Assembly (NCBI RefSeq): GCF_029227855.1
Contig: NZ_CP074356.1
Reading direction: 5' to 3' (one strand)
Length of the DNA: 64,000 nt
Source of the DNA: Escherichia coli
GTDB taxonomy: Bacteria > Pseudomonadota > Gammaproteobacteria > Enterobacterales > Enterobacteriaceae
Positions 5,769 to 55,514 of this stretch are shown here, piece by piece. A model generated the notes under the pieces. That model had not been told where the DNA came from, made no database searches, and saw only the letters and a list, made by a program, of their open reading frames with translations. The translations under genes were made by a program, and so were the position numbers. Numbering within the stretch: the first letter of the stretch is position 1; the number at the start of each line of letters is the position of its first letter.

Positions 5769-6461
5769 CTAGTGATAACCACGCGCGGTCATAAAATCCG
5801 TAATCGCTTTTTCCGCATCAACCAGCACTTGTTCCAGCGGTTGATTGGCATCGATATCAACCAGTTGCGCGCCTCCAAAGGTTAACTGTGGCATTATGGC
5901 TATCTTCCTTTCCAGCGATTCTCTTTTGTGGTCAGGCTTACGCGCGCAGGCCACGTCCAGATCGACATTGAGTTTGATGACCAGATCGGGCTTATGGCTC
6001 GCCATCCAGTGAAACGCTTTACGTTCCTGGCTTGCCAGCCATGAGACAAAACGACCACCTTCAACGTTAGGTGGGAACACCGTACCATCGTAAGCACCAG
6101 GAATTTGGTCCTGAGGATAACGGTCGGTTAGAACAATTAACCCGCGACGACGACAGGCAAGCATATGACGAAAGCGCAGTAAGCGACGGGCGACAAACGC
6201 TGTAATTACCAGCGCCGGAACAGGGCCAGGCAATTTTTTTGCTGTTTTCACCTGATTTCGTTCAATTGTTTTATGTAAGGATTTTCCCATCAACGGTAAT
6301 TTTGTCACTGCACGACCGACATTTCCGGCCTGTTTTCCTAAATGAACTCTTTCGGCAGCACCATATTTTTCGACAACGGTAATGAGATGTTCACACACCG
6401 TTGACTTGCCTGAACCATCGCTACCAATAACGGCAATTAATGGAGGTGTTATTGACTGCAT
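5769..6461 (-). CDS. yghT: YghT, P-loop NTPase of unknown function (230 aa)
   Basis: Walker [14 protein letters not shown] near N-terminus; DRYPQ and ARKPDH motifs shared with YghS and YghR (paralogs). Confidence 0.85.
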
Positions 6462-6634
6462 GAATATATCCTTTAATTTAAATATCCATTAAAAATATTT
6501 ATTTGGTTAATGTGTTTTTATGAAAGCGTAATTCAGGTCAATGTCACAATTAACCATTGTCACAATAAGGTTGAACGGATATTCTGAGCACGGACCACGT
6601 AATATTCAATACATTATTTGCTGCCGGGTTTTTC
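6462..6634. promoter_or_regulatory. Divergent intergenic region yghT <-> yghS (probable promoters)
   Basis: AT-rich 170-bp spacer between divergently oriented starts; no sites mapped by eye. Confidence 0.3.
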
Positions 6635-7348
6635 GTGAATCAACGTAATATGTCAATAATTAATTCCACGCCAGTGCGTGTTATTGCCATTGTAGGATAT
6701 GATGGTTCAGGTAAATCGACCCTCACGGCAAGCCTGGTAAATGAACTGGCAGCAACAATGCCAACAGAACACATTTATCTCGGGCAATCGTCCGGGCGAA
6801 TTGGCGAATGGATTTCACAGCTCCCTGTTATTGGCGCACCTTTTGGGCGTTATTTGCGAAGTAAAGCGGCACATGTGCACGAAAAGCCCTTAACACCGCC
6901 TGGCAATATTACTGCGCTGGTTATCTATCTGCTTTCCTGCTGGCGGGCGTACAAGTTTCGCAAAATGTTGTGTAAAAGCCAGCAAGGCTATCTGCTCATC
7001 ACCGACCGCTACCCGCAGGTTGAAGTGCCGGGTTTTCGCTTTGATGGCCCGCAATTGGCAAAAACCACGGGCGGTAACGGTTGGATAAAAATGTTAAGGC
7101 AGCGCGAGCTGAAGCTGTACCAATGGATGGCGTCTTATTTGCCCGTATTGTTGATTCGTCTTGGCATTGATGAACAAACGGCGTTTGCGCGTAAACCTGA
7201 CCACCAACTGGCGGCGTTACAGGAAAAAATCGCCGTTACGCCGCAACTGACATTCAATGGCGCAAAGATCCTTGAACTGGATGGTCGGCAACCAGCCGAT
7301 GAAATTATGCAAGCGTCACTACGTGCAATTCACGCCGCGCTTCCCTGA
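6635..7348 (+). CDS. yghS: YghS, P-loop NTPase of unknown function (237 aa; start may be GTG 6635 or ATG 6650)
   Basis: Walker A IAIVGYDGSGKSTL; DRYPQ and ARKPDH motifs; paralog of YghR/YghT. Confidence 0.85.
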   Translation: MNQRNMSIINSTPVRVIAIVGYDGSGKSTLTASLVNELAATMPTEHIYLGQSSGRIGEWISQLPVIGAPFGRYLRSKAAHVHEKPLTPPGNITALVIYLLSCWRAYKFRKMLCKSQQGYLLITDRYPQVEVPGFRFDGPQLAKTTGGNGWIKMLRQRELKLYQWMASYLPVLLIRLGIDEQTAFARKPDHQLAALQEKIAVTPQLTFNGAKILELDGRQPADEIMQASLRAIHAALP

Positions 7349-7379
7349 TCACCAAAATGGATAGGGGATGATTTAACGA

Positions 7380-8138
7380 ATGGATGCACTACAAACACAA
7401 ACTGTTAATAGTACAACCGCGCCGCAGCCCAACTACATTCCGGGGCTGATTGCGGTGGTCGGGTGTGATGGCACCGGTAAATCCACACTGACCACCGACC
7501 TGGTGAAATCGCTGCAACAACACTGGCAAACCGAGCGGCGCTATCTGGGGCTGCTCTCCGGCGAAGACGGCGACAAAATCAAACGATTGCCGTTGGTTGG
7601 CGTCTGGCTCGAACGGCGACTGGCGGCCAAATCCTCGAAAACCCAAAGCATGAAAACCAAATCTCCAGCGCTATGGGCGGCGGTGATTATGTACTGCTTC
7701 TCGCTGCGAAGAATGGCGAATCTACGCAAGGTTCAGCGACTGGCGCAAAGTGGCGTTCTGGTGGTCAGCGATCGCTTCCCGCAGGCTGAAATTTCGGGCT
7801 TTTATTATGACGGACCGGGGATCGGCGTCGAACGTGCGACCGGGAAAATCAGCATGTTTCTGGCGCAGCGCGAACGGCGTTTATACCAACAAATGGCGCA
7901 ATACCGTCCTGAATTAATCATTCGTTTGGGGATTGATATTGATACTGCCATCTCCCGCAAGCCTGACCATGACTATGCCGAGCTGCAGGACAAAATCGGC
8001 GTCATGTCGACGATTGGCTATAACGGCTCAAAAATTCTTGAGATTGATTCCAGAGCGCCCTACAGCGAAGTGCTGGAACAGGCACAGAAGGCGGTTTCTC
8101 TGGTTGCCATCGTTTCTGACCGCCGAAGTTTAACTTAA
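7380..8138 (+). CDS. yghR: YghR, P-loop NTPase of unknown function (252 aa)
   Basis: Walker A IAVVGCDGTGKSTL; DRFPQ and SRKPDH motifs; paralog of YghS/YghT. Confidence 0.85.
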   Translation: MDALQTQTVNSTTAPQPNYIPGLIAVVGCDGTGKSTLTTDLVKSLQQHWQTERRYLGLLSGEDGDKIKRLPLVGVWLERRLAAKSSKTQSMKTKSPALWAAVIMYCFSLRRMANLRKVQRLAQSGVLVVSDRFPQAEISGFYYDGPGIGVERATGKISMFLAQRERRLYQQMAQYRPELIIRLGIDIDTAISRKPDHDYAELQDKIGVMSTIGYNGSKILEIDSRAPYSEVLEQAQKAVSLVAIVSDRRSLT

Positions 8139-8183: not shown

Positions 8184-9533
8184 TTGGCGGGTTTTAACAT
8201 CAAACATTGGTTTGCAGATGGCGCGTTTCGCACCATTATTCGCAATAGCGCCTGGTTAGGCTCCAGTAATGTCGTGAGCGCTTTGCTGGGTCTGTTGGCG
8301 CTCTCGTGTGCCGGTAAAGGGATGACGCCCGCCATGTTTGGCGTACTGGTGATTGTGCAATCGTACGCCAAGTCGATCAGCGATTTTATTAAGTTTCAGA
8401 CATGGCAGTTGGTGGTGCAGTACGGAACGCCAGCCTTGACCAACAATAATCCGCAGCAATTTCGCAATGTCGTCTCATTTTCCTTCTCGTTGGATATCGT
8501 CAGCGGCGCGGTGGCGATTGTCGGCGGCATTGCCTTACTCCCTTTTCTTTCCCATTCATTAGGTCTGGATGACCAAAGCTTTTGGCTGGCAGCGCTGTAT
8601 TGCACGCTCATTCCTTCAATGGCTTCCTCCACGCCGACCGGCATTCTGCGTGCGGTAGATCGCTTCGACTTAATTGCTGTACAGCAGGCGACGAAACCTT
8701 TTCTGCGCGCAGCGGGGAGCGTCGTTGCCTGGTATTTTGACTTTGGTTTTGCGGGTTTTGTTATTGCCTGGTACGCCTCGAATCTTGTTGGCGGCACCAT
8801 GTACTGGTGGTTTGCCGCACGTGAATTACGCCGCAGAAATATCCATAACGCGTTCAAATTGAATCTGTTTGAGTCTGCCCGACACATCAAAGGCGCGTGG
8901 AGTTTTGTCTGGTCAACCAACATTGCCCATTCCATCTGGTCGGCGCGTAATTCGTGCAGCACAGTGTTGGTGGGGATCGTGTTAGGACCCGCTGCCGCCG
9001 GGTTATTTAAAATCGCCATGACATTCTTCGACGCCGCCGGAACGCCAGCGGGTTTACTGGGTAAAAGTTTTTACCCAGAGGTGATGCGTTTAGATCCGCG
9101 CACCACCAGACCGTGGTTGTTAGGCGTGAAGTCCGGTTTACTGGCGGGCGGAATCGGTATTCTGGTGGCGCTCGCGGTGTTGATCGTCGGCAAGCCGCTC
9201 ATTTCGCTGGTGTTTGGCGTTAAGTATCTCGAAGCGTATGACCTGATTCAGGTGATGCTGGGCGCAATTGTGATCTCGATGCTGGGCTTCCCTCAGGAGT
9301 CATTGCTATTGATGGCGGGAAAACAGCGCGCTTTTCTCGTGGCGCAAACCATCGCCTCAATCGGCTACATCGTATTGCTGTTCATGTTCTGTCATCTGTT
9401 TGGCGTGCTGGGGGCTGCATTTGCTTACTTCGGTGGGCAATGTCTGGATGTGGTGTTCTCGCTAATTCCGACCTTAAAGGCATTTTTTCAGCGCCATTCC
9501 TTGCTTTATAACTCAGCCGGAGAGAAATCCTGA
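8184..9533 (+). CDS. yghQ: YghQ, polytopic inner-membrane protein, MOP/Wzx-like putative flippase (449 aa as called from TTG start; first in-frame ATG is codon 47)
   Basis: Many hydrophobic segments throughout; N-terminus resembles polysaccharide-transporter family; stop overlaps downstream ATG (ATGA). Confidence 0.8.
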   Translation: MAGFNIKHWFADGAFRTIIRNSAWLGSSNVVSALLGLLALSCAGKGMTPAMFGVLVIVQSYAKSISDFIKFQTWQLVVQYGTPALTNNNPQQFRNVVSFSFSLDIVSGAVAIVGGIALLPFLSHSLGLDDQSFWLAALYCTLIPSMASSTPTGILRAVDRFDLIAVQQATKPFLRAAGSVVAWYFDFGFAGFVIAWYASNLVGGTMYWWFAARELRRRNIHNAFKLNLFESARHIKGAWSFVWSTNIAHSIWSARNSCSTVLVGIVLGPAAAGLFKIAMTFFDAAGTPAGLLGKSFYPEVMRLDPRTTRPWLLGVKSGLLAGGIGILVALAVLIVGKPLISLVFGVKYLEAYDLIQVMLGAIVISMLGFPQESLLLMAGKQRAFLVAQTIASIGYIVLLFMFCHLFGVLGAAFAYFGGQCLDVVFSLIPTLKAFFQRHSLLYNSAGEKS

Positions 9534-10357
9534 TGATGAGAAAATATTTCCCGCTTGAGGCGAGCGAGCGTCTATTTGTTGCGATTGAAGAAGATGATGT
9601 TGTTGATGCACAGGTCAGTTTGCCGCCGACTATCGCACTAAGTTGTACCACCGAAATCATCCATGATAATTACGCGTTATGCCTGCAATTCTGGCTCAAT
9701 GGCGTCAATCGCCAGGAGTTACTGCGTTTAATATGCAAACAGGCCAAAGGCGATGAGCTGACTGCTGATGAGCGCAAACAATTTAAATACATGCGAGCGC
9801 GCTACAAGCACCTGCGTTTTGCGCAACGGCTGTATTTAAAAAAGCATCAGGCCGGATTTTTATTCGGCAAAACGACCGTTTTTTTGGGGCGTTTTCAGGA
9901 CGGCTTTCGTAACGGTAAGAAAAATATTGTGTCGTATTACGGCAACCTGTTACGGGTTTATTTAAGCTCTCCGGTCTGGTCGTTGGTGAACTATTCATTA
10001 CGCCATAGCCAGTTAGAAAGCGTAAGCGGTTTTATTGCCTATCGGCAAAAGCAAATGCATACCCTGAAAGAGATAATTGCCAAATCGCGACTAACTGGCA
10101 GGGAATTTCATGATGTGCGAAAAATCATCAGCCAGCAGGTTTCTTATTACGACACCCTAAGATCGCTTGATCCTGAAAATAAAGAGGCGTTACAGATTTC
10201 CCGCTTCCTCGCCGCCATTAATGGCCTGATGGGGGATAAACACGACGACATGGTGGCGGATGATATGGAAAACCGCCAGTCGTATGATGCACCGATGGCG
10301 CTGGATAGCGATATTCGTCAGCGCTTAGAACTGCTGATTTCGCGTTTTCCGCTATAA
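9533..10357 (+). CDS. Hypothetical soluble protein (274 aa), translationally coupled to yghQ
   Basis: ATG overlaps yghQ stop; no transmembrane segments or signal peptide evident; basic/aromatic-rich helical-looking sequence; no domain recognised by eye. Confidence 0.6.
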   Translation: MMRKYFPLEASERLFVAIEEDDVVDAQVSLPPTIALSCTTEIIHDNYALCLQFWLNGVNRQELLRLICKQAKGDELTADERKQFKYMRARYKHLRFAQRLYLKKHQAGFLFGKTTVFLGRFQDGFRNGKKNIVSYYGNLLRVYLSSPVWSLVNYSLRHSQLESVSGFIAYRQKQMHTLKEIIAKSRLTGREFHDVRKIISQQVSYYDTLRSLDPENKEALQISRFLAAINGLMGDKHDDMVADDMENRQSYDAPMALDSDIRQRLELLISRFPL

Positions 10358-10365
10358 CCGGAGCA

Positions 10366-10929
10366 ATGATGTCATCTCGTTTGATTATTGCGCTGGTTAT
10401 CATGCTCTTAGCCCCGGGTGTGCAGGCGCACAATTTCGTCACTGGTAAAACGGTTACCCCTGTTTATATCCAGGAAGGCGGCGAGCTGCTTCTGAATAGC
10501 GAAGACGAAATTCACTACCAAAAGTGGAACAGCACACAGCTGGCGGGAAAAGTCCGCATTATTCAGTATATCGCCGGGCGTAAGTCGGCGAAGAAAAAGA
10601 ACTCACTGTTAATTAAAGCGGTTGAAGCGGCAAACTTTCCGCAGGATCGTTTTCAGCCCACCACCATTGTGAACACTGATGATGCCATCTTTGGTACCGG
10701 CTATTTTGTCGTTGGCAAAATCGAAAAAAATAAACGCCGCTATCCATGGGCGCAATTCGTTATTGACGGCAATGGACAGGGACGCGTTGCCTGGCACTTG
10801 CAGGAGCAGAGTTCAACCATTCTGGTGCTGAATAAAACCGGGCAAATTCAGTGGGCAAAGGACGGCAGCCTGACGCCGGAAGAGGTAGAACATGTCATTG
10901 CGCTGGCGCAGAAACTGATCAATGAATAA
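10366..10929 (+). CDS. Hypothetical exported (periplasmic) protein, 187 aa
   Basis: N-terminal signal peptide MMSSRLIIALVIMLLAPGVQA followed by hydrophilic mature domain; starts 8 nt after the previous stop. Confidence 0.6.
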   Translation: MMSSRLIIALVIMLLAPGVQAHNFVTGKTVTPVYIQEGGELLLNSEDEIHYQKWNSTQLAGKVRIIQYIAGRKSAKKKNSLLIKAVEAANFPQDRFQPTTIVNTDDAIFGTGYFVVGKIEKNKRRYPWAQFVIDGNGQGRVAWHLQEQSSTILVLNKTGQIQWAKDGSLTPEEVEHVIALAQKLINE

Positions 10930-10959
10930 AAAATTCAAAGGATTGAGGGCGTTAGTGAG

Positions 10960-12030
10960 ATGAAGCTGGTTGAACACTACATCATGCGTGGTACGCGCCG
11001 TCTGGTGCTGATTATCGTCGGTTTTCTGATCTTTATTTTCGCCAGCTACTCCGCACAGCGTTATCTGACCGAAGCGGCAAATGGGACATTAGCTCTTGAT
11101 GTTGTGCTGGATATTGTTTTCTACAAGGTGCTGATTGCACTGGAGATGTTGTTACCTGTTGGACTGTATGTGTCAGTTGGCGTGACGCTAGGGCAGATGT
11201 ATACCGACTCGGAAATTACCGCTATTTCTGCGGCGGGGGGCAGTCCGGGACGCTTGTACAAAGCCGTTCTTTATCTGGCGATACCGCTAAGTATTTTTGT
11301 CACCCTTCTGTCGATGTATGGTCGTCCGTGGGCTTATGCGCAGATTTATCAACTGGAGCAACAGTCACAGTCGGAGCTGGATGTTCGCCAGTTGCGGGCA
11401 AAGAAATTTAACACTAACGATAACGGACGAATGATCCTTTCGCAGACGGTTGATCAGGATAATAATCGCCTGACTGACGCGCTGATTTATACTTCTACTG
11501 CCAATCGAACCCGCATTTTCCGCGCCCGTTCGGTTGATGTGGTTGACCCATCACCTGAGAAACCGACCGTTATGTTGCATAACGGGACCGCCTATCTTCT
11601 CGATCATCAGGGGCGTGACGACAACGAACAGATCTACCGTAATCTGCAATTACATCTGAATCCGCTGGATCAAAGCCCTAACGTCAAACGCAAAGCAAAA
11701 TCGGTCACGGAGCTGGCGCGCTCCGCCTTTCCTGCCGATCATGCCGAACTGCAATGGCGACAAAGCCGTGGCCTGACAGCGTTGTTGATGGCGCTGCTGG
11801 CCATTTCATTAAGTCGGGTAAAACCGCGGCAAGGGCGATTTTCAACGTTATTGCCACTGACGTTGCTGTTTGTTGCCATTTTTTATGGCGGCGACGTCTG
11901 CCGTACGCTGGTGGCTAACGGCGCGATTCCCCTCATTCCTGGTTTGTGGTTAGTACCCGGACTCATGCTAATGGGCCTGCTGATGCTGGTCGCACGCGAC
12001 TTCTCTTTGCTGCAGAAATTTTCCCGATGA
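10960..12030 (+). CDS. LptF-like permease (YjgP/YjgQ family), 356 aa
   Basis: N-terminus MKLVEHYIMRGTRRLVLIIVGFLIFIF typical of LptF/LptG; hydrophobic N- and C-terminal segments flanking a large hydrophilic loop; ~360 aa; RBS upstream. Confidence 0.75.
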   Translation: MKLVEHYIMRGTRRLVLIIVGFLIFIFASYSAQRYLTEAANGTLALDVVLDIVFYKVLIALEMLLPVGLYVSVGVTLGQMYTDSEITAISAAGGSPGRLYKAVLYLAIPLSIFVTLLSMYGRPWAYAQIYQLEQQSQSELDVRQLRAKKFNTNDNGRMILSQTVDQDNNRLTDALIYTSTANRTRIFRARSVDVVDPSPEKPTVMLHNGTAYLLDHQGRDDNEQIYRNLQLHLNPLDQSPNVKRKAKSVTELARSAFPADHAELQWRQSRGLTALLMALLAISLSRVKPRQGRFSTLLPLTLLFVAIFYGGDVCRTLVANGAIPLIPGLWLVPGLMLMGLLMLVARDFSLLQKFSR

Positions 12031-13106
12031 ATGTTTTCAGTCGCTATTTAATCCGTCATCTCTTTCTCGGTTTTGCCGCCGCCGCAGGGCTATTGCTGCC
12101 GCTTTTTACTACCTTCAACCTGATTAACGAACTGGATGATGTCAGCCCGGGCGGTTATCGCTGGACTCAGGCGGTGCTGGTGGTGCTGATGACCTTACCG
12201 CGTACACTGGTCGAACTTTCGCCGTTTATCGCCTTATTGGGAGGGATTGTTGGCCTGGGGCAGTTATCGAAAAACAGTGAGCTTACCGCCATTCGCAGCA
12301 CTGGGTTTTCTATCTTCCGTATTGCACTGGTGGCGCTGGTTGCCGGGATATTGTGGACTGTTTCGTTAGGCGCGATAGATGAGTGGGTGGCGTCGCCATT
12401 GCAGCAACAGGCGCTGCAAATCAAATCGACTGCCACCGCGTTGGGGGAGGACGATGACATTACCGGCAATATGCTTTGGGCCAGGCGCGGTAATGAATTT
12501 GTGACGGTGAAATCGCTGAACGAGCAGGGCCAGCCTGTGGGCGTGGAGATATTTCATTATCGCGACGATCTCTCGCTCGAATCCTACATTTTTGCACGCA
12601 GTGCCTCCATTGAAGACGACAAAACATGGATCCTGCATGGTGTGAATCATAAAAAATGGTTGAATGGCAAAGAAACGCTGGAAACATCAGATAATCTTGC
12701 CTGGCAATCGGCCTTCACCAGTATGAATCTTGAAGAGTTATCGATGCCGGGAAATACTTTTTCTGTCCGTCAACTTAATCATTACATCCATTATTTGCAG
12801 GAAACTGGGCAACCCAGCAGCGAATACCGCCTTGCACTGTGGGAAAAACTGGGACAACCCATCCTGACCCTGGCGATGATTTTGCTGGCTGTGCCGTTTA
12901 CCTTTAGTGCCCCGCGTTCGCCAGGGATGGGTAGCCGTCTCGCTGTAGGCGTCATCGTTGGCTTACTCACCTGGATCAGCTATCAAATCATGGTCAATCT
13001 GGGGTTGCTATTTGCGTTGAGCGCACCTGTTACCGCGCTCGGTTTACCGGTAGCGTTTGTGCTGGTGGCGTTGAGCCTGGTGTATTGGTATGACAGACAA
13101 CATTAA
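12027..13106 (+). CDS. LptG-like permease (YjgP/YjgQ family), 359 aa
   Basis: Track ORF trimmed to ATG overlapping upstream stop (ATGA); MNVFSRYLIRHLFLGFAAAAGLLLPLF typical LptF/G N-terminus; same topology pattern as partner. Confidence 0.75.
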   Translation: MNVFSRYLIRHLFLGFAAAAGLLLPLFTTFNLINELDDVSPGGYRWTQAVLVVLMTLPRTLVELSPFIALLGGIVGLGQLSKNSELTAIRSTGFSIFRIALVALVAGILWTVSLGAIDEWVASPLQQQALQIKSTATALGEDDDITGNMLWARRGNEFVTVKSLNEQGQPVGVEIFHYRDDLSLESYIFARSASIEDDKTWILHGVNHKKWLNGKETLETSDNLAWQSAFTSMNLEELSMPGNTFSVRQLNHYIHYLQETGQPSSEYRLALWEKLGQPILTLAMILLAVPFTFSAPRSPGMGSRLAVGVIVGLLTWISYQIMVNLGLLFALSAPVTALGLPVAFVLVALSLVYWYDRQH

Positions 13107-13107
13107 A

Positions 13108-13136
13108 CCCGCCGTGGCGCAGCGCCACAGCGGGCT
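13108..13136. terminator. Palindromic stem-loop between convergent operons (probable bidirectional terminator)
   Basis: cccgccgtggcgc a gcgccacagcggg inverted repeat in the 34-bp gap between the LptG-like stop and the alpha-oxoamine synthase stop. Confidence 0.45.
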
Positions 13137-13140
13137 CACA

Positions 13141-14313
13141 TTACTGCTTCAGAGTAGCGAACGCTTGAATGATGGCATCAATTTGCTCACGACTGTGGGC
13201 AGCGTTTACGCTACAGCGCAGCAGCGTGATGCCTGCAGGCGCGGCAGGTGGCAGGATAAGATTCACATAAACGCCCAGCGAAATAAGCTCGCGCCAGATG
13301 CGTAAACCGTCCTCTTTCGAACCGATTATTACTGGCACTACCGGGCTAATATGTGAACTTAACTCGTAACCCAGTTTTTGCAGACCGTCATACAGATGGT
13401 TGGCGTTATCCATCAGCTTTTGCCGCAGCTCTGGTTGTGAGGCAATGGTTCTTAACGACGAGCGCACGGTCGCAATGCAGGACGGAGAAGGAGAGGCGGT
13501 AAAAATATACGGGCGGCTGCCGTAGCGCAGCACTTCCATCGCTTCCGAACCGACAGCAAAACCGCCAATCGAGGCCAGACTTTTACTGAAAGTACCAACG
13601 ATAATATCCACATCATCTTCAACGCCAACGGCTTCAGCCAGTCCGCGCCCCGTTGCGCCTAACACGCCAAACGAATGCGCTTCATCGACAATCAAATAAC
13701 CACCGAGACGACGTTTGATATCAACAATTTCCGCCAGCGGCGCAACGTCACCGAGCATACTGTAGATGCCTTCAACGATGATAATCGCCTCTTTTGCCCG
13801 TTCACCGAGGCGAACCATGCGCCGTTCCAGATCTTTAGCATCGTTATGGCGGAAACGAATAATTTCCGCGCCACCGAGAGAACAGGCGTCATAAATACTG
13901 GCGTGGCTGTCGGCATCCAGTAACACCACGGCGTTATGGTCGGCAAGTGCGCTGATGACGCCTAAATTAGCGGTATAACCGGTTGAAAAAACGATAGCGG
14001 TAGGGCGATTAAAAAACTCGGCGATCTCTTTCTCTAACGCCAGATGCGGCGCATAACTGCCGTTTGCCATACGAGAACCGGTGGTGCCGGTGCCTTGGGC
14101 CGCTAACGCTGCCTGACCTTCGGCGATGGCATCATGATTAAAGGTTAAACCGAGATAATTATTGGTCCCGGCCAGAATCACTTTTTTATTGCCGATCCGA
14201 CCTTCGGTGGCGGAATACACTTCATCAATACAGGTGCCAAACGGTGTTAACCCGTTGTCACTAAATTGCAGTCGCTCGCCAGCAAGGCGCGCATATTTAT
14301 CGTATAGCCCCAT
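13141..14313 (-). CDS. PLP-dependent alpha-oxoamine synthase, serine palmitoyltransferase-like (390 aa)
   Basis: Class-II aminotransferase fold signature with Schiff-base lysine in GTFSKSLASIGGF (the TFSKS variant is typical of SPT rather than BioF/KBL); Gly-rich loop TGTTGSRMANGS; start overlaps ACP stop (TAATG). Confidence 0.85.
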   Translation of the reverse strand: MGLYDKYARLAGERLQFSDNGLTPFGTCIDEVYSATEGRIGNKKVILAGTNNYLGLTFNHDAIAEGQAALAAQGTGTTGSRMANGSYAPHLALEKEIAEFFNRPTAIVFSTGYTANLGVISALADHNAVVLLDADSHASIYDACSLGGAEIIRFRHNDAKDLERRMVRLGERAKEAIIIVEGIYSMLGDVAPLAEIVDIKRRLGGYLIVDEAHSFGVLGATGRGLAEAVGVEDDVDIIVGTFSKSLASIGGFAVGSEAMEVLRYGSRPYIFTASPSPSCIATVRSSLRTIASQPELRQKLMDNANHLYDGLQKLGYELSSHISPVVPVIIGSKEDGLRIWRELISLGVYVNLILPPAAPAGITLLRCSVNAAHSREQIDAIIQAFATLKQ

Positions 14314-14561
14314 TATTTATTCTCCAGCCATGGAAGTAGTGTTTCCATTAATTGCGCAGGGGTTTTGACATCCAGCAGAATATTAATAGGAATGGAAATA
14401 TCGAATCTGTCTTCCAGCATCATTAAGAGATCCATCACTTTGATCGACTCCAGGCCAAGATCGTTGACGAGATCGCTGTCGGGCTTAATTTCCACACCGT
14501 TTTCGACCAAATCCTGTAAACAGGAAAGGATGTAATCCATTACTATTTCACGATTTACCAT
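14313..14561 (-). CDS. Acyl carrier protein (82 aa)
   Basis: Small acidic protein with phosphopantetheine-attachment motif DLGLESIKVMDL; located between reductase and alpha-oxoamine synthase. Confidence 0.8.
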   Translation of the reverse strand: MVNREIVMDYILSCLQDLVENGVEIKPDSDLVNDLGLESIKVMDLLMMLEDRFDISIPINILLDVKTPAQLMETLLPWLENK

Positions 14562-14592
14562 AGAAACGTTAACACACCTTTAAACAAGACAA

Positions 14593-15507
14593 TCAAAATA
14601 GCCCGTTGCGTAATGCGTGTTCCAGGCTAATCCCGGGAAACCAATTAATATCTTCAGAAATACGGTTATTACTTGCCGACCAGTCGGCGTGGGTTAATTC
14701 ACGAATTTTCGAGCGGGTCAGCATAGGTTCTTTACCTGCCAGGCGACTCAACGCGGTACTGATATCCGCAAGGCAGGTGAGTACCGGCAGAGGAATACCA
14801 ACCATTCGCACGGAACCACAACGGGCGTCGGCGGCAAGCTGTCGTACGTGTTGCCAGTCATAGCCGCCGGGGACGCCATCGCATAATTCATAGGTTTGCG
14901 TCTGTACAGTTTCGGCGCTTAACCACTGCCCCACGGCTTGCGCAAAATCGGTGATGTGCAGGAAAGAGAGTTGTGTATCTGGCGCACCAAGTCGTGGCAG
15001 CAGGCCGCGCAGCATCCAGTCAAACAGCGGTTTTAACTCTTTATCGCCGGGACCATACACGGCTGTCGGGCGAAAAACGCCCAGCGTAATTTCATCAGCC
15101 ATTGCAGTCAGCCGTTGTTCGGCGACGTGTTTGGAATTTGCGTACCAGGAGAGTTCGGGATGGCGCGCCGCCAGCGAAGAGATAAACAGAAAACGTTGGC
15201 AAAAGCCGCTCTCTTTTGCCGCTTGCATCAGTCGCAGGCTGCCGTCAACGTTACAGCGGGTAAAAATCTCTTCTTTGTGCCCGCGCACTTGCCCGGCGCA
15301 ATGGACCACCGCGCTGGCTCCGGCAACCAGTTCGCTAAGTGAATGAGTATCTTCCAGAGAACCGCGCACCCAGGTGAGATTATCATTGACGTGAGCGCGG
15401 GCAGTACGCGTCAATGCGCGAACGTGAAAGCCGCGGGCGAGCAGGTTATCGATAATATATTTACCGATAAACCCGGTAGCGCCCGTCACCGCGACAGTTT
15501 GATTCAT
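14593..15507 (-). CDS. NAD(P)-dependent epimerase/dehydratase-family (extended SDR) reductase, 304 aa
   Basis: N-terminal Rossmann motif VTGATGFIG; catalytic YANSK (YxxxK); start overlaps upstream stop (ATGA). Confidence 0.8.
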   Translation of the reverse strand: MNQTVAVTGATGFIGKYIIDNLLARGFHVRALTRTARAHVNDNLTWVRGSLEDTHSLSELVAGASAVVHCAGQVRGHKEEIFTRCNVDGSLRLMQAAKESGFCQRFLFISSLAARHPELSWYANSKHVAEQRLTAMADEITLGVFRPTAVYGPGDKELKPLFDWMLRGLLPRLGAPDTQLSFLHITDFAQAVGQWLSAETVQTQTYELCDGVPGGYDWQHVRQLAADARCGSVRMVGIPLPVLTCLADISTALSRLAGKEPMLTRSKIRELTHADWSASNNRISEDINWFPGISLEHALRNGLF

Positions 15508-17228
15508 GCCAGGGATTCCTGCACATGAAGGCTTGCAGCATAAGCCTTCTGATAACGTTTTTTCGCTTCCGCACGGGCAGGCTTGCCGGAGGACGTTCGG
15601 GGAATACTGTGGGGCGGCAACAGATCGATAGCCGCGGTCACGCCAAATTCGCTTTGGATCCGTGCTGCCAGCGCGTGGATAAGCTGCCCGCGACGTTCTT
15701 CATCGCTGATCCGACACTGGATCTGCAAAATGATTTTTTCCTGGGCGGTAACAAAAGCAATCGCATCGCCAGAATGAATTTCCGGTTCCTGTTCCGCAAT
15801 ATATTCAATATCCTGCGGCCAGATATTACGGCCACGAATAATAATCAGATCTTTAATGCGTCCGGTGACATACAGATAACCGTCCAGCAGATAACCGAGG
15901 TCGCCGGTGTCTAACCAGCCCGTCGCGGCAATCTCGTCTTGTGAAATCTGGTCGCCAAAGTAACCGCTCATCAGGCTAGGGCCGGAGATGCAAATATGGC
16001 CTACCACACGTTCCGCGACAGGTATACCTGCTTCATTGCGGATTTCAATGCCATGTTCCGGCAACGCTTTACCGCAGTTGACGAAAGTCGATACGGCGCG
16101 TGTTTCAGCATCCGGCGCGACGGCTTTGCCCTGATATTCGAGGATGTCGCGATCCACTTCGTTAACCACAACCCCGGAAGCTTCATCAGAGAAGCTGACA
16201 GCCAGCGCATTTTCTGCCAGTCCGTAGCACGGCATGAAAGTTTTATCGTCAAAGTTGACCTGACGGAAACATTCAGCGAATTGATGGAGTTGTTCTGCGG
16301 AGATGGGTTCTGCACCAATACCAGCGACGCGCCAGCAGGAAAGATCCAGTTCAGCGAGATCTTTTTCATTCACGCGGCGCTGGCACAATTCATAGCCAAA
16401 CGGCGGCGCAACGGAAACGGTGCCGCGATTTTTACTGATCAATTTAAGCCATTGCAGAGGACGCATGGCAAAATCCTGAGTGCGCAAATAATCTACTGAA
16501 AGCTGCGTGGCGACGGGGGTCAGGAGAAAGCCGACCAGTCCCATATCATGGTAGAAAGGCAGCCAGGAGACGCAGCGGTCGCCAGGGCGTAATTTAATGC
16601 CATCGTGGCTTATAGCACGTAGATTAGCCATCACTTCGCGATGGGTGATAATGACGCCACGGGGAAAACGGGTGCTGCCGGAGGTGTACTGGAGGTAGGC
16701 GATATCGTTCGGAACTGGATGCTGGAGTGCAACATCGGCTTCCGGTAATGCCTTAAACCAGGCGTGGCTTAAAACATGTAATTCGGGGTTGTTGTTATGC
16801 GTCGCGGCATTGACCAGCGGTAACCACTCATCACCAGTGATAATGGCTGCGGGCTGGCAACTTGTCAGTAAACCCTGCAGTTTGGCGCTCCAGGAATCCC
16901 GCTGACCGACGCCCATTGGAATCGCCAACGGGACGGCGACTAAGCCGGCATACTGGCAGGAAAAAAAAGCCTCTACGAACCCGCTACTGGTTTCGGCAAT
17001 CAGCGCCACGCGATCGCCTTTTTTCAGGTTCAGCGATAACAACCGCTTCGCACCAGCTTCGGCACGCGCTTTTAACGTCTGATATTCCAGTTGATCTTCA
17101 AGTTGGCAACGTCTGTCATAAAAATTCATTCCGGCGCTACTCAGAGCGGCGTAGTCCAAAGCATCAACCAGCGTTGGAAAATCGGCATAGCGCATAGGTA
17201 GGGAATGCGTAAAGATTTTATTAGACAT
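15504..17228 (-). CDS. Fatty acyl-AMP ligase / acyl-ACP synthetase-like adenylating enzyme (~574 aa; track ORF extends to TTG at 17255)
   Basis: AMP-binding core YTSGSTRFPRGV; WLPFYHDMGLVG motif and overall length resemble FAAL-type enzymes; first gene of the minus-strand operon. Start chosen at first ATG (MSNKIFTHSL). Confidence 0.8.
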   Translation of the reverse strand: MSNKIFTHSLPMRYADFPTLVDALDYAALSSAGMNFYDRRCQLEDQLEYQTLKARAEAGAKRLLSLNLKKGDRVALIAETSSGFVEAFFSCQYAGLVAVPLAIPMGVGQRDSWSAKLQGLLTSCQPAAIITGDEWLPLVNAATHNNNPELHVLSHAWFKALPEADVALQHPVPNDIAYLQYTSGSTRFPRGVIITHREVMANLRAISHDGIKLRPGDRCVSWLPFYHDMGLVGFLLTPVATQLSVDYLRTQDFAMRPLQWLKLISKNRGTVSVAPPFGYELCQRRVNEKDLAELDLSCWRVAGIGAEPISAEQLHQFAECFRQVNFDDKTFMPCYGLAENALAVSFSDEASGVVVNEVDRDILEYQGKAVAPDAETRAVSTFVNCGKALPEHGIEIRNEAGIPVAERVVGHICISGPSLMSGYFGDQISQDEIAATGWLDTGDLGYLLDGYLYVTGRIKDLIIIRGRNIWPQDIEYIAEQEPEIHSGDAIAFVTAQEKIILQIQCRISDEERRGQLIHALAARIQSEFGVTAAIDLLPPHSIPRTSSGKPARAEAKKRYQKAYAASLHVQESLA

Positions 17229-17599
17229 ATACACCACGAAAAAATTGGATATCAAAAATAAAATGACAATAATGCGGTGGATTATATAGGCATAAAAGAT
17301 AAATGAGATAATATTTTCATCAGTGTGAAAATGAACATTGATTTAAATAATGAGTTTGAGTTTTTTTGTTTTTATTGTGAATGATATTTAATTTATGAAT
17401 GTATTAAGAAGAAGCCTTGTCCGGTCGCCTTAAATCGACAAAAGGCATTGTGGCGCTTCTGTGTAGTCTCTGACCTTATCGTAATCATTAATAAATACTA
17501 TTTATTCGTCGTTTGTATTCATTGGGTTGATTATTAAGGTGCCGTTCGTTGCTGTTGCAACCTGTTTTTCACCGTTAATTATTTGTTACCCACAGAACT
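17229..17599. promoter_or_regulatory. AT-rich divergent control region between lipid operon (-) and yghO (+)
   Basis: ~370 bp strongly AT-rich non-coding DNA with A/T tracts; no ORF with coding character; expected site of promoters for both flanking units. Confidence 0.35.
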
Positions 17600-18742
17600 A
17601 TGGAATGCGATCTGCTGATGATTAAAATTGAAAAAGTAATTAATAAAAATGACCTTAAGGCATTTATCGCTTTTCCGTCATCACTTTATCCCGACGATCC
17701 AAACTGGATACCCCCTTTATTCATTGAACGCAACGAGCATTTGTCTGCGAAAAATCCGGGGACGGACCATATCATCTGGCAGGCGTGGGTGGCAAAAAAA
17801 GCGGGGCAGATAGTTGGGCGTATTACCGCGCAAATAGATACCTTGCACCGCGAGCGTTACGGTGAAGATACCGGTCATTTCGGCATGATTGACGCCATTG
17901 ATGATCCGCAGGTTTTTGCCGCGTTGTTTGGCGCAGCGGAAGCGTGGTTGAAGTCACAAGGTGCAAGTAAGATCAGCGGTCCTTTCAGCCTGAATATCAA
18001 TCAGGAAAGCGGATTACTGATTGAAGGTTTCGATACACCACCCTGTGCGATGATGCCGCACGGTAAACCGTGGTATGCCGCGCATATTGAACAATTGGGT
18101 TATCACAAAGGCATTGATTTACTAGCGTGGTGGATGCAGCGAACCGATCTCACTTTCTCTCCGGCGCTAAAAAAACTGATGGATCAGGTGCGTAAGAAGG
18201 TGACCATTCGCTGCATCAATCGCCAGCGGTTTGCCGAAGAGATGCAGATCCTGCGTGAGATTTTCAACTCTGGCTGGCAGCACAACTGGGGATTTGTGCC
18301 GTTTACCGAACATGAATTCGCGACTATGGGCGATCAACTTAAATATCTGGTGCCGGACGATATGATCTACATCGCTGAGATTGATTCTGCACCCTGCGCG
18401 TTTATTGTTGGCTTGCCAAACATCAACGAGGCGATTGCCGATCTGAACGGATCGCTCTTTCCCTTCGGCTGGGCAAAATTGCTGTGGCGTTTAAAAGTCA
18501 GCGGTGTGCGAACTGCGCGAGTACCGCTGATGGGCGTGCGGGACGAGTATCAGTTTAGCCGCATCGGCCCGGTGATTGCGCTGTTATTGATTGAAGCCTT
18601 ACGCGATCCGTTTGCCCGCCGGAAGATCGATGCGCTGGAGATGTCATGGATCCTCGAAACCAATACAGGCATGAATAACATGCTGGAACGCATTGGGGCG
18701 GAGCCGTACAAGCGTTACCGATTGTATGAAAAGCAGATTTGA
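17600..18742 (+). CDS. yghO: YghO-family protein, intact (380 aa); possible acyl-CoA N-acyltransferase-like fold
   Basis: Uninterrupted ORF, soluble; position matches yghO next to glcC. Fold assignment is tentative. Confidence 0.7.
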   Translation: MECDLLMIKIEKVINKNDLKAFIAFPSSLYPDDPNWIPPLFIERNEHLSAKNPGTDHIIWQAWVAKKAGQIVGRITAQIDTLHRERYGEDTGHFGMIDAIDDPQVFAALFGAAEAWLKSQGASKISGPFSLNINQESGLLIEGFDTPPCAMMPHGKPWYAAHIEQLGYHKGIDLLAWWMQRTDLTFSPALKKLMDQVRKKVTIRCINRQRFAEEMQILREIFNSGWQHNWGFVPFTEHEFATMGDQLKYLVPDDMIYIAEIDSAPCAFIVGLPNINEAIADLNGSLFPFGWAKLLWRLKVSGVRTARVPLMGVRDEYQFSRIGPVIALLLIEALRDPFARRKIDALEMSWILETNTGMNNMLERIGAEPYKRYRLYEKQI

Positions 18743-50220: not shown

Positions 50221-52179
50221 TTATCCAATATTGTTTTTATAGTCAATGGTTTTTTTTATTAAGTTATAAGAAGCGATAGGGTTTCGTTTAACGCTTTTGA
50301 TAAAGACAAACGCCAAAGCTGTTTTCTTATTCTCTTGAGATAACATGATATGATTGGAGTTTAATAGACCAATAGGAGATTCAATATTTTTAGTTTTAAA
50401 AATACTGTTGTGAGTAAAATATAAGTTACATTCTTTTTTTGCGAACTTTTCGAACCCCAAATCACTTAATAATATTATGTCTGAATAGTCTTCAGTATAT
50501 ACTAAATTTGGATTGATAAGGTTGTATTCTTTATTCGGGTATTTAGAAACTAAAGTGTCTAGCAATAATTTGTCTGAGACAATATCTATACAATCAAAAC
50601 AATCGGTGTTGTCTAAGAGTGTATATAATTTATGTTGATTTATGTCTTTATACCCTTTCGCCCAGATAAGTAATCTTTTTGATAATTTATCCTTTAGTCT
50701 ATTGTTTCCTGCTTTTACTCTACGATAAAGTAAATCAGAATTCTCTCTGAATCCAAGAGGGTCTAATATATAATCATTCGAATCAATTGGTGACTTGAAA
50801 CTATAAAGAATTGGTTTGTTTGCTTTTTGTCTTATTCTATATAGATCATTTATGTGCAAGCTTAATGATTCATCAAAAATAATAAGTTCTGGGTTTTCTT
50901 TTGAAATGATTTTCAAAATGTCATCTTGAGCGAGATTTTGCGGGAGAATATGTTCACAAAATTGACTTACTTCTGAACCATATCGACCTGAATAAATAAA
51001 GACAGGGATAATATTACTATCATTATATAAATTAAAATAGAACTTAATTGCATGCACAGTGGATGCAGCAATTAACACTTTTACAGGGGTTATCGGTAAT
51101 GAAATATCCTGTTCATAAATCTCGTATGGGATATAATCCCTTTTATCATGTTCTGATTTAAATGTTATTCCTCTATATATTTTTTTCTCTAATCCCGTAA
51201 TAAATCTTTCAACGTGTCGCAACCCTTTTAAAAAATCCTTTCTTAATATGTTACATGCTGTTTCAAAACAGCTTGGGTTTACTGGTTGATTAATAAACTC
51301 AATGATTTCTTTTGCGAAGGTTGATATATCCCCATAAGGAACAACCCTAATAATTTCAGGAGGGGCTATTTCTGAGTTTCCGCCAACATCCCAACAGACT
51401 ACAGGTGTATATGTCGATAAAGACTCCAAAATAGCCATTGAGCAGTTTTCAAATTTGCTTAGAGATATAGCTACCTTAGCTCGGGATAGAAAATTAAATT
51501 TTTCATTTCCCTCAATATGTTCAAGGAAAGAAACATTAGAATACTCTTTAGATAAAGTGATTTTTTTCTCTTGTTTTCCGACAATAAAAATACTTAGATC
51601 ATTAGGTAAATTTTTTATGAGTGGTTCAATAAATTCAATTCCCTTAAGGTTGTTAAATCTGCTGAAGAAAATTACATCTATGTCTTTTTCAATTACACTT
51701 TTAAGAAGGTCTTTTTTTAGTGTGATTGGATTTTTATATACATGTATATTTGTAATGTCTAAATCATCTTTAAGTAGTTCTAACATGCCGTAAGATGGAG
51801 AGGAGACGGCTTTGGCTTTATAAATCGCTCTGCATTCATCTGAAAAACGAGCCTCATCAGGCTCTTCATTGATGATTCTTTTATATAGATGAAAGGGGCA
51901 ATGTAATCTGATATGTATATTTGCATCTTTTGGGAATAAAAGAGTTGGAGATTGTGATTCTGCTGCTTCAATTATTGTAGTGTGGTTTATTGCTTTTTTA
52001 TTTAAATTTAGATACGTGAATTTTCTAAAGTCTGGCATCGACATATCGTAAGGCTTTACAAACTCTTTATATGGGAAATCATAAACTTCATTGACTGTTT
52101 TAATATAATTAGTCACACCATTGCTGAATTCTGGATTATAGATAAAGTGATTGATGGATATTCTTTCAAGAGATTTCAT
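50221..52179 (-). CDS. Capsule region-2 protein (652 aa), probable glycosyltransferase (GT-B/GT4-like N-terminal part)
   Basis: Segment ...AISLSKFENCSMAILESLSTYTPVVCWDVGGNSEI resembles the GT4 E-x7-E/nucleotide-sugar binding region; AT-rich; between kpsT and the 800-aa gene. Confidence 0.6.
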   Translation of the reverse strand: MKSLERISINHFIYNPEFSNGVTNYIKTVNEVYDFPYKEFVKPYDMSMPDFRKFTYLNLNKKAINHTTIIEAAESQSPTLLFPKDANIHIRLHCPFHLYKRIINEEPDEARFSDECRAIYKAKAVSSPSYGMLELLKDDLDITNIHVYKNPITLKKDLLKSVIEKDIDVIFFSRFNNLKGIEFIEPLIKNLPNDLSIFIVGKQEKKITLSKEYSNVSFLEHIEGNEKFNFLSRAKVAISLSKFENCSMAILESLSTYTPVVCWDVGGNSEIAPPEIIRVVPYGDISTFAKEIIEFINQPVNPSCFETACNILRKDFLKGLRHVERFITGLEKKIYRGITFKSEHDKRDYIPYEIYEQDISLPITPVKVLIAASTVHAIKFYFNLYNDSNIIPVFIYSGRYGSEVSQFCEHILPQNLAQDDILKIISKENPELIIFDESLSLHINDLYRIRQKANKPILYSFKSPIDSNDYILDPLGFRENSDLLYRRVKAGNNRLKDKLSKRLLIWAKGYKDINQHKLYTLLDNTDCFDCIDIVSDKLLLDTLVSKYPNKEYNLINPNLVYTEDYSDIILLSDLGFEKFAKKECNLYFTHNSIFKTKNIESPIGLLNSNHIMLSQENKKTALAFVFIKSVKRNPIASYNLIKKTIDYKNNIG

Positions 52180-52372
52180 AATTTCTTTGCTCCTAACTAT
52201 TTGGGGTTATTGAAAATTATTTTTTGTTTGTTTCCACCTAAGGTTTATTTAGGATGATTGTGTAACTAACTATGTCTTAATTTACGTTTGATAAAATCAT
52301 TATTGTGTTGATAAATGTGATTAAAATAATATCATTTAAATTAAGTGTTAAGGTGCGTCAATATTATCGGCA

Positions 52373-53838: not shown

Positions 53839-53865
53839 TTGAGATATAACCTTAATATATTTTGG

Positions 53866-53877
53866 TACGCTACCGCC
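53866..53877 (-). promoter_or_regulatory. ops (GGCGGTAG) element in kpsM leader; RfaH antitermination site
   Basis: Plus-strand ctaccgcc (reverse complement GGCGGTAGCGT) about 30 nt upstream of the kpsM ATG on the coding strand. Confidence 0.5.
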
Positions 53878-54247
53878 CTTGGCTCTAGCTACCAGCATGC
53901 TCGGGCGTACCATATGAGACAAACCAGAATGGACAGATAAATATTTCGTCTGGTATTAGTTTGTCTTTTCTTTACGAAAATACTTATAGATTGGACAATG
54001 AAAAATTTGGTTTAAGGCAGTCCAACCTATGTAATGTTATTGAAACATCCTGCTAATAATCTTAAATTTAATGTTTCATTAAGTTCTATCAATTTAAACA
54101 CATTGATTTGCGAATTCTATCATTTAGACTTACAGATAACTCCAGTGTTTAATATGTAAACATGCCTCATAAATTGCAAGGTAGATTGCAGGTTGCTAAT
54201 CTTTTGTTACTTATATAAAATCTGTTTTGTTTATTTTATATCAAATT

Positions 54248-55480: not shown

Positions 55481-55514
55481 AAATAATTTCCGTAATAGTC
55501 AACTATGAAATTGT

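Follow-up and report, generated by a model that had tools for sequence, protein, structure and literature searches.

A second pair of LptF/LptG-type permeases has been described in Caulobacter crescentus, in which LptF2 and LptG2 (CCNA_01214/CCNA_01213; CC_1156/CC_1155) are likewise encoded side by side in a locus that also carries spt, acp, acyl-ACP synthetase, reductase and N-acyltransferase genes; the names LptC2, LptF2 and LptG2 are given in PMC11324152. The Caulobacter pair is needed for sphingolipid export and is essential only while the cell produces the anionic sphingolipid, deletion succeeding only where spt or cpgB has also been removed (bioRxiv 10.64898/2026.04.12.717747). LptF2 and LptG2 are recovered together on purification, along with the sole LptB, and Fig. 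2B of the same preprint (bioRxiv 10.64898/2026.04.12.717747) draws the locus of E. coli UTI89 as homologous to that of Caulobacter; the homology of the Caulobacter and E. coli pairs rests on this figure. The sphingolipid-export concept for LptF2/LptG2 has already been published for Caulobacter, and the finding that we report here is confirmatory.

Both species lack a linked LptB and encode the canonical LptFG elsewhere in the genome. LptC2 is found in Caulobacter but absent from E. coli, and the head-group genes also differ: Caulobacter has CpgA (PgsA-like), CpgB (LCB5/DAG-kinase-like) and CpgC, whereas E. coli instead has the P-loop proteins YghR/S/T, YghQ, a 274-aa protein and a YtfJ-like protein. 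Because of this difference in head-group genes, the final lipid of the E. coli locus is probably something other than ceramide diphosphoglycerate. Compared with the canonical E. coli LptB2FG(C) complex (PDB 6MHU, 6S8H), the pair has the same family, length, topology, TM3–TM4 beta-jellyroll and coupling-helix glutamates, but it is only 25–29% identical, lies in a ceramide locus and is missing from some strains of the species; where canonical LptG has cationic TM1 residues that contact the lipid A phosphates and core, LptG2 has N, D and D. Sphingomonas wittichii likewise has sphingolipid-linked LptFG homologues next to spt. These are reported to be the sole LptFG of an LPS-free, glycosphingolipid-bearing organism, whereas the E. 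coli pair is an accessory second one beside the essential LPS system.

An intact second LptF/LptG-type pair in E. coli

The window, which is the whole stretch of 64 kb that was analysed, is the yghT–glcC region of a non-K-12 E. coli. It contains lptF2 (10960..12030, plus strand; ATG start, 356 aa) and lptG2 (12027..13106, plus strand; 359 aa from its ATG), which encode permeases of the LptF and LptG families, respectively. The initial annotation had described two adjacent permeases of about 360 aa from the YjgP/YjgQ family, coupled by an ATGA and located away from the canonical lptFG, and each of these points held. The ATGA at 12027–12030 is the stop codon of lptF2 overlapping the start of lptG2; this start, 12027, is the one used by RefSeq and by all homologues, the mechanical ORF call being longer and reaching a GTG at 11946. 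The neighbours in the window are pitB, yghTSRQ and the glc operon. Against the curated NCBIfam profiles, LptF2 scores 319.8 bits with TIGR04407 (LptF; cut-off 230) and LptG2 scores 304.7 bits with TIGR04408 (LptG; cut-off 240), and each protein clearly prefers its own subfamily over the other (320 versus 69 bits for LptF2, 305 versus 85 bits for LptG2). PF03739 (YjgP/YjgQ) is annotated on database proteins identical to LptF2 and LptG2, and a different transporter family is not indicated.

Structural comparison gives the same assignment. The pair matches LptF and LptG chains in the PDB at E values of 1e-20 to 1e-42, with 25–29% identity to those of E. coli and Shigella, and LptG2 aligns end to end with E. 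coli LptG (6mhu_G; 146 bits, 28% identity). The AF2 model of LptF2 (pLDDT 82.6) has six TM helices (residues 3–40, 46–82, 97–138, 258–284, 297–319 and 328–355), a coupling helix and, between TM3 and TM4, a periplasmic beta-jellyroll with strands at 149–232; its best Foldseek match is LptF (9dok_F, TM-score 0.78). LptF2/LptG2 is a real and intact second LptF/LptG-type permease pair in E. coli.

Among 5426 complete E. coli genomes, 4131 (76%) have the pair, 4105 have at least 80% of it and 1295 (about 24%) lack it. K-12 MG1655 also lacks it, the deletion adjoining an IS5 that truncates yghQ. This deletion, the 1295 genomes without the pair, the rearrangement of the locus in some others, the existence of truncated forms (Shigella included) and the lack, in the literature that we found, of any report of native sphingolipid production by E. 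coli could together describe a decaying remnant that no longer functions in the species. We consider such a remnant very improbable, as the pair is retained in most genomes and its reading frames evolve slowly: against a strain that is about 4.6% divergent in nucleotide sequence, neither gene contains a stop and dN/dS is 0.023 for lptF2 and 0.058 for lptG2. Full-length sequences number about 5,800 members in the protein clusters, versus about 550 in the main truncated clusters, and many enterobacterial genera, as well as Pseudomonas, have full-length 356-aa orthologues (55–76% identity) with preserved synteny. The pair is under strong purifying selection, and the possibility raised with the initial annotation, that the ORFs might be pseudogenised in most strains, turned out not to be the case.

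Ceramide genes and linkage of the pair to spt

The lipid-synthesis operon that had been noted beside the pair consists of ceramide genes. Convergent to lptF2–lptG2, on the minus strand, are spt, encoding serine palmitoyltransferase (13141..14313; NF047599, 597 bits with a cut-off of 500; RefSeq name spt), acpR, for a specialised acyl carrier protein (14313..14561; ACP family matches; ECD_02853 in PMC9386255), cerR/epi, for an NAD-dependent epimerase-family reductase of the ceramide pathway (14593..15507; family matches; ECD_02852 in PMC9386255), and aasR, for a fatty acyl-AMP ligase or acyl-AcpR synthetase (15504..17228 with the RefSeq start; NF006624, 870 bits; ECD_02851 in PMC9386255). Nearby on the plus strand is yghO (17600..18742), which encodes an N-acyltransferase homologous to bacterial ceramide synthase and named 'aca' (ECD_02850) in PMC9386255, so that 13141–18742 holds all five ceramide-synthesis genes. 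Spt, AcpR and AasR of E. coli BL21 have been characterised biochemically, with Spt assayed (PMC9386255). CerR homologues (35–73% identity) sit in the spt loci of other species, and YghO, without a match in Pfam or NCBIfam, has homologues of 44–83% identity at the spt loci of other species. The gap of 34 nt between the convergent lptG2 and spt holds a GC-rich 16-bp inverted repeat (13104..13138, unstranded), a consensus match from the terminator-like scan that is likely to be a bidirectional terminator. The promoter-like scan returned 11 sites, not above the 13.9 expected from shuffling, so that no promoter is called.

Upstream of the pair are genes for three P-loop, NMP-kinase-like proteins: yghT (5769..6461, minus strand; Walker A GSDGSGKS), which is divergent from yghS (6635..7348, plus strand; GYDGSGKS), and yghR (7380..8138, plus strand; GCDGTGKS), all three with only weak matches to the dTMP-kinase family. 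They are followed, all on the plus strand, by a full-length yghQ (8184..9533), encoding a membrane protein that resembles MOP-superfamily flippases through a weak match and whose Hafnia and Serratia homologues carry Pfam Polysacc_synt; by the gene for the 274-aa protein (9533..10357), part of the same operon-like block; and, directly upstream of lptF2, by the gene for a YtfJ-family protein (10366..10929; TIGR01626, 215 bits) with an N-terminal signal-like sequence. The 274-aa protein has no match in Pfam or NCBIfam and its family is unassigned; it is kept in enterobacterial loci at 51–90% identity and its gene has a dN/dS of 0.10. The YtfJ-family gene holds the same position in Hafnia, Serratia and more than 20 enterobacterial loci. 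As a set, YghT/S/R, YghQ, the 274-aa protein and the YtfJ-like protein have no counterpart in the Caulobacter CPG2 pathway.

Linkage in other species was examined from both sides. From the spt side, a scan with an Spt alignment gave the best 80 spt loci, among which there were no alphaproteobacteria, and counts were made on the 45 other-species loci with both 10-kb flanks. An adjacent F–G pair lies beside spt in 38 of these 45 loci, across many taxa, and seven have no linked pair; for a single lptFG locus, the chance of falling within such flanks, some 20 kb out of several Mb of genome, would be roughly 0.5%. From the LptF2 side, sphingolipid genes adjoin the pair in all six long contigs sampled, while the three best distant LptF2 representatives are contigs of 1.7–5.5 kb and stand outside the linkage count. 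By score, the linked LptF is closer to LptF2 than to canonical LptF in 51 of 51 loci and the linked LptG closer to LptG2 than to canonical LptG in 40 of 47, with the linked LptG of Nitrospirota and delta-proteobacterial MAGs being equally close to both.

The gene order in Enterobacterales would also fit an extractor for a product of the yghTSRQ side, a glycolipid or lipid-linked polymer handled by YghQ, with the ceramide genes as mere neighbours. There yghS, yghR, yghQ, the 274-aa gene, the YtfJ-family gene and the pair all run in one direction with little space between them (−4 to 45 nt), converging on spt, and in Serratia the spt operon is on the other side of this block. Outside Enterobacterales, however, yghTSRQ genes are missing altogether from most loci in which the pair lies beside spt or yghO homologues (for example in most Pseudomonas species, Azotobacter, Arhodomonas and Nitrospira), and beta-proteobacterial loci with yghTSR-like genes have no pair within 10 kb. 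The constant partner of the pair is therefore the ceramide pathway, and we regard an extractor dedicated to a yghTSRQ-side product as improbable.

The ATPase, the substrate pocket and a proposed route for the lipid

The pair had also been noted to lack a nearby ABC ATPase, and the P-loop proteins of the locus to lack ABC signatures. A six-frame scan of the whole 64 kb for Walker A plus ABC signature agrees: no LptB-like ATPase is linked to the pair in the window, and the sole ABC ATPase candidate, at 52376–53143 on the minus strand, is of the Wzt/TagH/KpsT type for polysaccharide export. In YghT, YghS and YghR the Walker A motif is not accompanied by an ABC signature. Six annotated loci from other species likewise contain no standalone LptB-like ATPase. 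Three candidate partners were rejected: the KpsT-like protein, which has its own permease alongside in a capsule locus 40 kb away; YghR/S/T as energising subunits, being NMP-kinase-like and missing from most non-enterobacterial loci that bear the pair; and the 274-aa protein as a hidden ATPase, in which the Walker-A-like AGFLFGKT comes with neither a family match nor an ABC signature.

The alignments point to the housekeeping LptB. The coupling helices contain positions, including a strictly conserved glutamate, with a described role in LptB coupling (PMC5082905); E85 of LptF2 corresponds to LptF E84 and E85 of LptG2 to LptG E88, and every linked homologue examined has this glutamate. Overall, Y81, E85, A91 and G93 of LptF2 and E85 and G93 of LptG2 match LptB-coupling positions. 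The LPS contacts that we checked (LptG K34, K40, K41, K62, R133 and R136; LptF R33, K317, K322 and R263) have a different fate. LptG K40 and K41 bind the 4′-phosphate and inner core of LPS, K34 is a 1′-phosphate contact, and the K34E mutant is lethal (PMC6744409). LptG K34, D37, K40, K41 and R133 are replaced by N, N, D, D and L in LptG2 (N31, D37 and D38 for K34, K40 and K41), and the K34/K40/K41 positions are acidic or neutral in eight of eight linked homologues. Positive charge is kept only at the equivalents of LptF R33, LptG K62 and LptG R136, the C-terminal LptF sites either differing or, as with K317 and K322, being alignment-dependent (V and I with HMMER, R and N with MAFFT). As far as the aligned residues tell, the LptB-docking residues of LptF2/LptG2 are retained and part of the LPS-phosphate-binding set is lost, leaving the pair without the full cationic set that contacts the inner core and the phosphates of lipid A in LPS exporters.

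This bears on whether LptF2/LptG2 could be a redundant or specialised exporter of LPS or modified LPS, as the RefSeq names imply. Such a role would agree with the scores above the curated equivalog cut-offs, with a fold and coupling helices like those of LptFG, and with the positive charge kept at three 1′-phosphate contacts. Nevertheless, the low identity to E. coli LptF/G, the clade-wide loss of basic residues at the K34/K40/K41 positions and the association of the pair with spt rather than with LPS genes all argue against it. Moreover, K-12 and about a quarter of E. coli genomes make LPS normally without the pair, which is not the universal presence expected of an essential LPS exporter, and in Caulobacter the homologous pair is no longer required when sphingolipid synthesis is abolished. 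An LPS-exporting role is accordingly very unlikely in our judgement, and the naming of the pair as LPS export permeases by the RefSeq/NCBI equivalogs is very likely a functional over-annotation.

We consider it likely, with good confidence, that LptF2/LptG2 forms the transmembrane half of a second LptB2FG-type extractor for the ceramide or sphingolipid of the locus, a gene cluster reaching from yghT to yghO, and that it is powered by the housekeeping LptB. The initial annotation had suggested dedicated transport of a non-LPS lipid from the adjacent operon, possibly with a borrowed LptB or other ATPase; the first part gains support from the linkage to spt, the lost LptG lysines and the Caulobacter precedent, and the second from the conserved docking residues and the co-purification with the sole LptB in Caulobacter. 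The literature that we found holds no experiment on the E. coli proteins, and for this species we infer which lipid is carried, that LptB drives the pair and how the lipid travels past the inner membrane. Under this model, Spt, AcpR, AasR, YghO and CerR would make (dihydro)ceramide at the inner membrane, and its head group would probably be modified by enzymes of the locus (YghR/S/T, the 274-aa protein and perhaps others). A flippase, for which YghQ is the candidate in the locus, would bring the lipid to the periplasmic leaflet. The LptF2–LptG2 heterodimer, with two copies of the single LptB docked on its conserved coupling helices, would then extract the lipid and pass it through the beta-jellyroll domains of LptF2 and LptG2 towards the outer membrane.

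A more specific version for Enterobacterales is possible, though on balance we lean against it. Here the pair would export an undescribed sphingolipid whose head group is built by YghT/S/R, YghQ, the 274-aa protein and the YtfJ-like protein, and the acidic TM1 patch of LptG2 (N31, D37, D38) would exclude LPS and select this lipid. As E. coli has no LptC2, the pair would then have to feed the housekeeping LptC–LptA–LptDE bridge, and in most natural E. coli the export of LPS and that of sphingolipid would compete both for LptB and for this bridge.

Most natural E. coli, and not K-12, have a complete ceramide pathway together with its own Lpt-like extractor, and the best-studied model of outer-membrane biogenesis may therefore lack a class of lipid that can reach the cell surface in its wild relatives. 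If LptB, and perhaps the bridge, is shared with LPS export, this would bear on envelope homeostasis, polymyxin susceptibility and antibiotics that target Lpt. A different type of transporter, an MsbA-like fused ABC exporter, lies beside spt in two of the loci from other species (L010 and L013).

Family assignment and genomic setting

The two genes, lptF2 (10960-12030, +; 356 aa) and lptG2 (12027-13106, +; 359 aa), are joined by an ATGA at 12027-12030, in which the lptF2 stop codon overlaps the lptG2 start. RefSeq and all homologues place this start at ATG 12027; a mechanical list of open reading frames reached back to a GTG at 11946. Consistent with the initial annotation, which had assigned both products to the LptF/LptG permease family, LptF2 scores 319.8 bits against NCBIfam TIGR04407 (LptF; cut-off 230) and 68.9 bits against the LptG model, and LptG2 scores 304.7 bits against TIGR04408 (LptG; cut-off 240) and 85.4 bits against the LptF model. 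Sequence searches of the PDB gave strong matches to LptF chains only for LptF2 (77-114 bits) and matches to LptG chains for LptG2 (126-148 bits). An AlphaFold2 model of LptF2 (mean pLDDT 82.6) has six transmembrane helices, three on either side of a beta-sandwich at 149-232, as well as a short helix at 85-91. Foldseek matched this model to LptF chains (TM-score 0.78 against P. aeruginosa 9dok_F), and its jellyroll also gave weak local matches to LptA.

The canonical lptFG genes are essential and occupy their own operon at another chromosomal site. LptF2 shares 25-29% identity with E. coli/Shigella LptF, and LptG2 shares 28% with E. coli LptG. LptF2 scores higher against Pseudomonas and Vibrio LptF (114 bits) than against the LptF of E. 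coli itself (94 bits), and therefore does not stem from a recent duplication. Judged from sequence comparison, the pair is a paralogue distinct from the housekeeping LptF/LptG.

The window belongs to the chromosome of a non-K-12 Escherichia coli, which strain LR-31 matches at 100% identity over the query. Its gene order runs hyb, yghU, gss, pitB, yghT (-), yghS, yghR, yghQ, a 274-aa orphan, a YtfJ-family gene and the pair. Next come four minus-strand genes: spt, then those for an acyl carrier protein, an NAD-dependent epimerase-family protein and a fatty acyl-AMP ligase. Beyond the ligase lie yghO (+), glcC and the glc operon, sslE, T2SS-beta genes and the kps capsule locus. Between the convergent lptG2 and spt, a GC-rich, perfect-looking 16-bp hairpin (13104-13138) occupies the 34-nt gap and is probably a bidirectional terminator common to both genes. 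The YtfJ-family gene (10366-10929), whose product has a signal-peptide-like N-terminus (MMSSRLIIALVIMLLAPGVQA), lies immediately 5' of lptF2 in every enterobacterial locus seen, and some automated gene calls fuse the two into 553-aa products with PF09695 and PF03739. The YtfJ-family protein could contribute to periplasmic steps of the pathway.

Linkage to ceramide synthesis

The operon adjoining the pair encodes the bacterial ceramide pathway. Against the serine palmitoyltransferase equivalog, Spt reaches 597 bits (cut-off 500); AasR, the ligase, reaches 870 bits against a fatty acyl-AMP ligase model. The same genes have been cloned from E. coli BL21 (ECD_02851-02854), where the acyl carrier protein is phosphopantetheinylated, the ligase acylates it and Spt prefers acyl-AcpR; the epimerase-family gene ECD_02852 and yghO (ECD_02850) are listed as the other two dihydroceramide genes (Padilla-Gomez et al. 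2022, PMC9386255).

This association extends well beyond E. coli. Starting from LptF2, an exhaustive profile-free search recovered more than 140 cluster representatives at 135-226 bits, scores exceeding those of every canonical LptF in the PDB set. Six contigs were of sufficient length to show the surroundings of the pair (Nitrosovibrio, Arhodomonas, a gammaproteobacterial MAG, Hafnia, Serratia and a metagenome contig), and in every one sphingolipid genes adjoin it, with tblastn identities of 57% for Spt, ~41% for AcpR, 44% for CerR, 45-46% for AasR and 47-49% for YghO. We also approached the linkage from the spt side, using an Spt alignment, one genome per species and the best 80 loci, 45 of which had both 10-kb flanks. 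An adjacent LptF-then-LptG pair is present in 38 of these 45: 19 of 21 in Enterobacterales, eight of nine in Pseudomonadaceae and 11 of 15 in others, including Nitrospirota and delta-proteobacterial MAGs. Chance alone would place a lone lptFG locus within 20 kb of spt in ~0.5% of several-Mb genomes. In 51/51 loci the spt-linked LptF resembles E. coli LptF2 more closely than canonical LptF, and in 40/47 the spt-linked LptG is nearer to LptG2; the exceptions fall in Nitrospirota and delta-proteobacterial MAGs. Serratia sp. M24T3 carries two spt copies on separate contigs (L036, L020), one in a full locus with lptF2G2 and the other with only an acyl carrier protein gene alongside within 10 kb.

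Candidate head-group genes vary among these loci. Many gamma- and betaproteobacterial loci contain DAGK_cat, CDP-OH_P_transf and NTP_transf_3 genes; in Enterobacterales, yghT/S/R, yghQ, the 274-aa orphan and the YtfJ-like gene instead form a conserved block with lptF2G2. The pair might export a non-sphingolipid product of yghTSRQ, a reading disfavoured by most non-enterobacterial loci, which combine the pair and ceramide genes without yghTSRQ. The three paralogous P-loop NMP-kinase-like genes yghT, yghS and yghR (5769-8138) are not confined to E. coli: homologues with 37-56% identity occur in spt loci (L069, L072, L082, L095, L043, L044) of several betaproteobacteria (Sulfuritalea, Rhodocyclaceae, Methylotenera), Pseudomonas mandelii and P. 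bohemica, which suggests a recurrent putative head-group-modifying module. The orphan (9533-10357), which separates yghQ from the YtfJ-like gene in the sphingolipid loci of Enterobacterales, is conserved there (51-90% identity; dN/dS 0.10) and had no match in Pfam and NCBIfam searches. In a gammaproteobacterial MAG (L010, 417-2117) and a metagenome contig (L013, 1682-3406), a fused MsbA-like ABC exporter (ABC_membrane plus ABC_tran, ~570 aa) directly adjoins spt, and is a candidate ceramide flippase in place of the enterobacterial MOP-family YghQ.

Predicted ATPase docking, substrate cavity and published precedent

A six-frame scan of the 64-kb window for Walker A plus ABC signature found no LptB-like ATPase linked to the pair. 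Its one candidate (52376-53143, -) is a Wzt/TagH/KpsT-type polysaccharide-export ATPase beside its own permease, 40 kb away in a low-GC capsule region. YghT, YghS and YghR have Walker A without an ABC signature and weak dTMP-kinase-family similarity. The scan thus bears out the earlier claim that the locus has no linked ABC ATPase and that its P-loop proteins lack the signature. The segment holding the window's only ABC ATPase (44000-56000) has 30-34% GC against ~51% elsewhere; in its LR-31 counterpart, two frameshifted IS1 copies flank kps region-2 glycosyltransferase genes, and next come KpsT/KpsM-type ABC exporter genes.

In the coupling helices, strict conservation and a crucial role in assembly with LptB have been shown for LptF E84 and LptG E88; in LptF, positions 80, 84, 90 and 91 also matter (Simpson et al. 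2016, PMC5082905). LptF2 Y81, E85, A91 and G93 and LptG2 E85 and G93 occupy matching positions, and the glutamates are invariant among all linked homologues examined. These residues are consistent with docking of an LptB-type ATPase on the transporter.

LPS is contacted at its 1'-phosphate by LptG K34, K62, R133 and R136 and LptF R33, at its 4'-phosphate by LptG K40 and LptF K317, at glucosamine by LptG D37, and at the inner core by LptG K41 and LptF K322, R263 and Q248; K34E is lethal (Tang et al. 2019, PMC6744409). LptG K34, D37, K40, K41 and R133 are replaced by N, N, D, D and L in LptG2, and the K34, K40 and K41 positions are acidic or neutral in 8/8 aligned spt-linked homologues. Positive charge is kept at LptF R33, LptG K62 and LptG R136; the C-terminal LptF contact positions are alignment-dependent and were given no weight. 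We infer from these alignments that part of one anionic-group site may be kept and the 4'-phosphate and core sites lost, as would be expected for a small two-chain lipid, not LPS. A second LPS exporter is disfavoured by these changes in LptG2, by the linkage to spt and by the dispensability of the pair in the species.

Transport of a non-LPS lipid, possibly borrowing LptB, had been the initial interpretation, drawn purely from the sequence, and it closely matches published Caulobacter work. CC_1168, CC_1156 and CC_1155 were named LptC2, LptF2 and LptG2, with selective phosphosphingolipid transport proposed (Olea-Ozuna et al. 2024, PMC11324152). Caulobacter lptF2, lptG2 and lptC2 can be deleted only after deletion of spt or cpgB, and LptF2 co-purifies with LptG2, and both with the sole LptB; these genes are found in many alpha- and gammaproteobacterial sphingolipid loci, and the E. 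coli UTI89 locus is drawn in Figure 2B (Uchendu, Isom and Klein, bioRxiv 10.64898/2026.04.12.717747, April 2026). The feature is real and its interpretation probably correct, and it has already been described in the literature. The candidate E. coli head-group set differs from Caulobacter CpgA, CpgB and CpgC, and E. coli lacks LptC2, which the same preprint describes as Caulobacter-restricted. Our literature search found no report of a native E. coli sphingolipid, nor an experiment on the E. coli pair.

Spread and selection in E. coli

Of 5426 complete E. coli genomes, 4131 carry the pair, and 4105 have it at ≥80% coverage and ≥95% identity. Both genes are intact in a strain ~4.6% divergent, with dN/dS of 0.023 (lptF2) and 0.058 (lptG2), and database clusters of the full-length protein hold ~5,800 member sequences, compared with ~550 for the main clusters of truncated forms, some of them from Shigella. 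A decaying remnant is disfavoured by these selection and conservation data, and the pair is not pseudogenised in most strains. In K-12 MG1655 (L015, 3130146-3131340, compared with 9533-17255 of the window), IS5 separates yghO from a truncated yghQ and eight genes, from the 274-aa orphan through the acyl-AMP ligase, are missing; the standard laboratory strain therefore lacks both ceramide synthesis and LptF2G2. Strain SW07091 (L003) has independent deletions, one running from just past yghQ to the final 65 bp of lptG2, and a second that joins an acyl-AMP ligase remnant to gspD, with loss of yghO, the glc operon and sslE.
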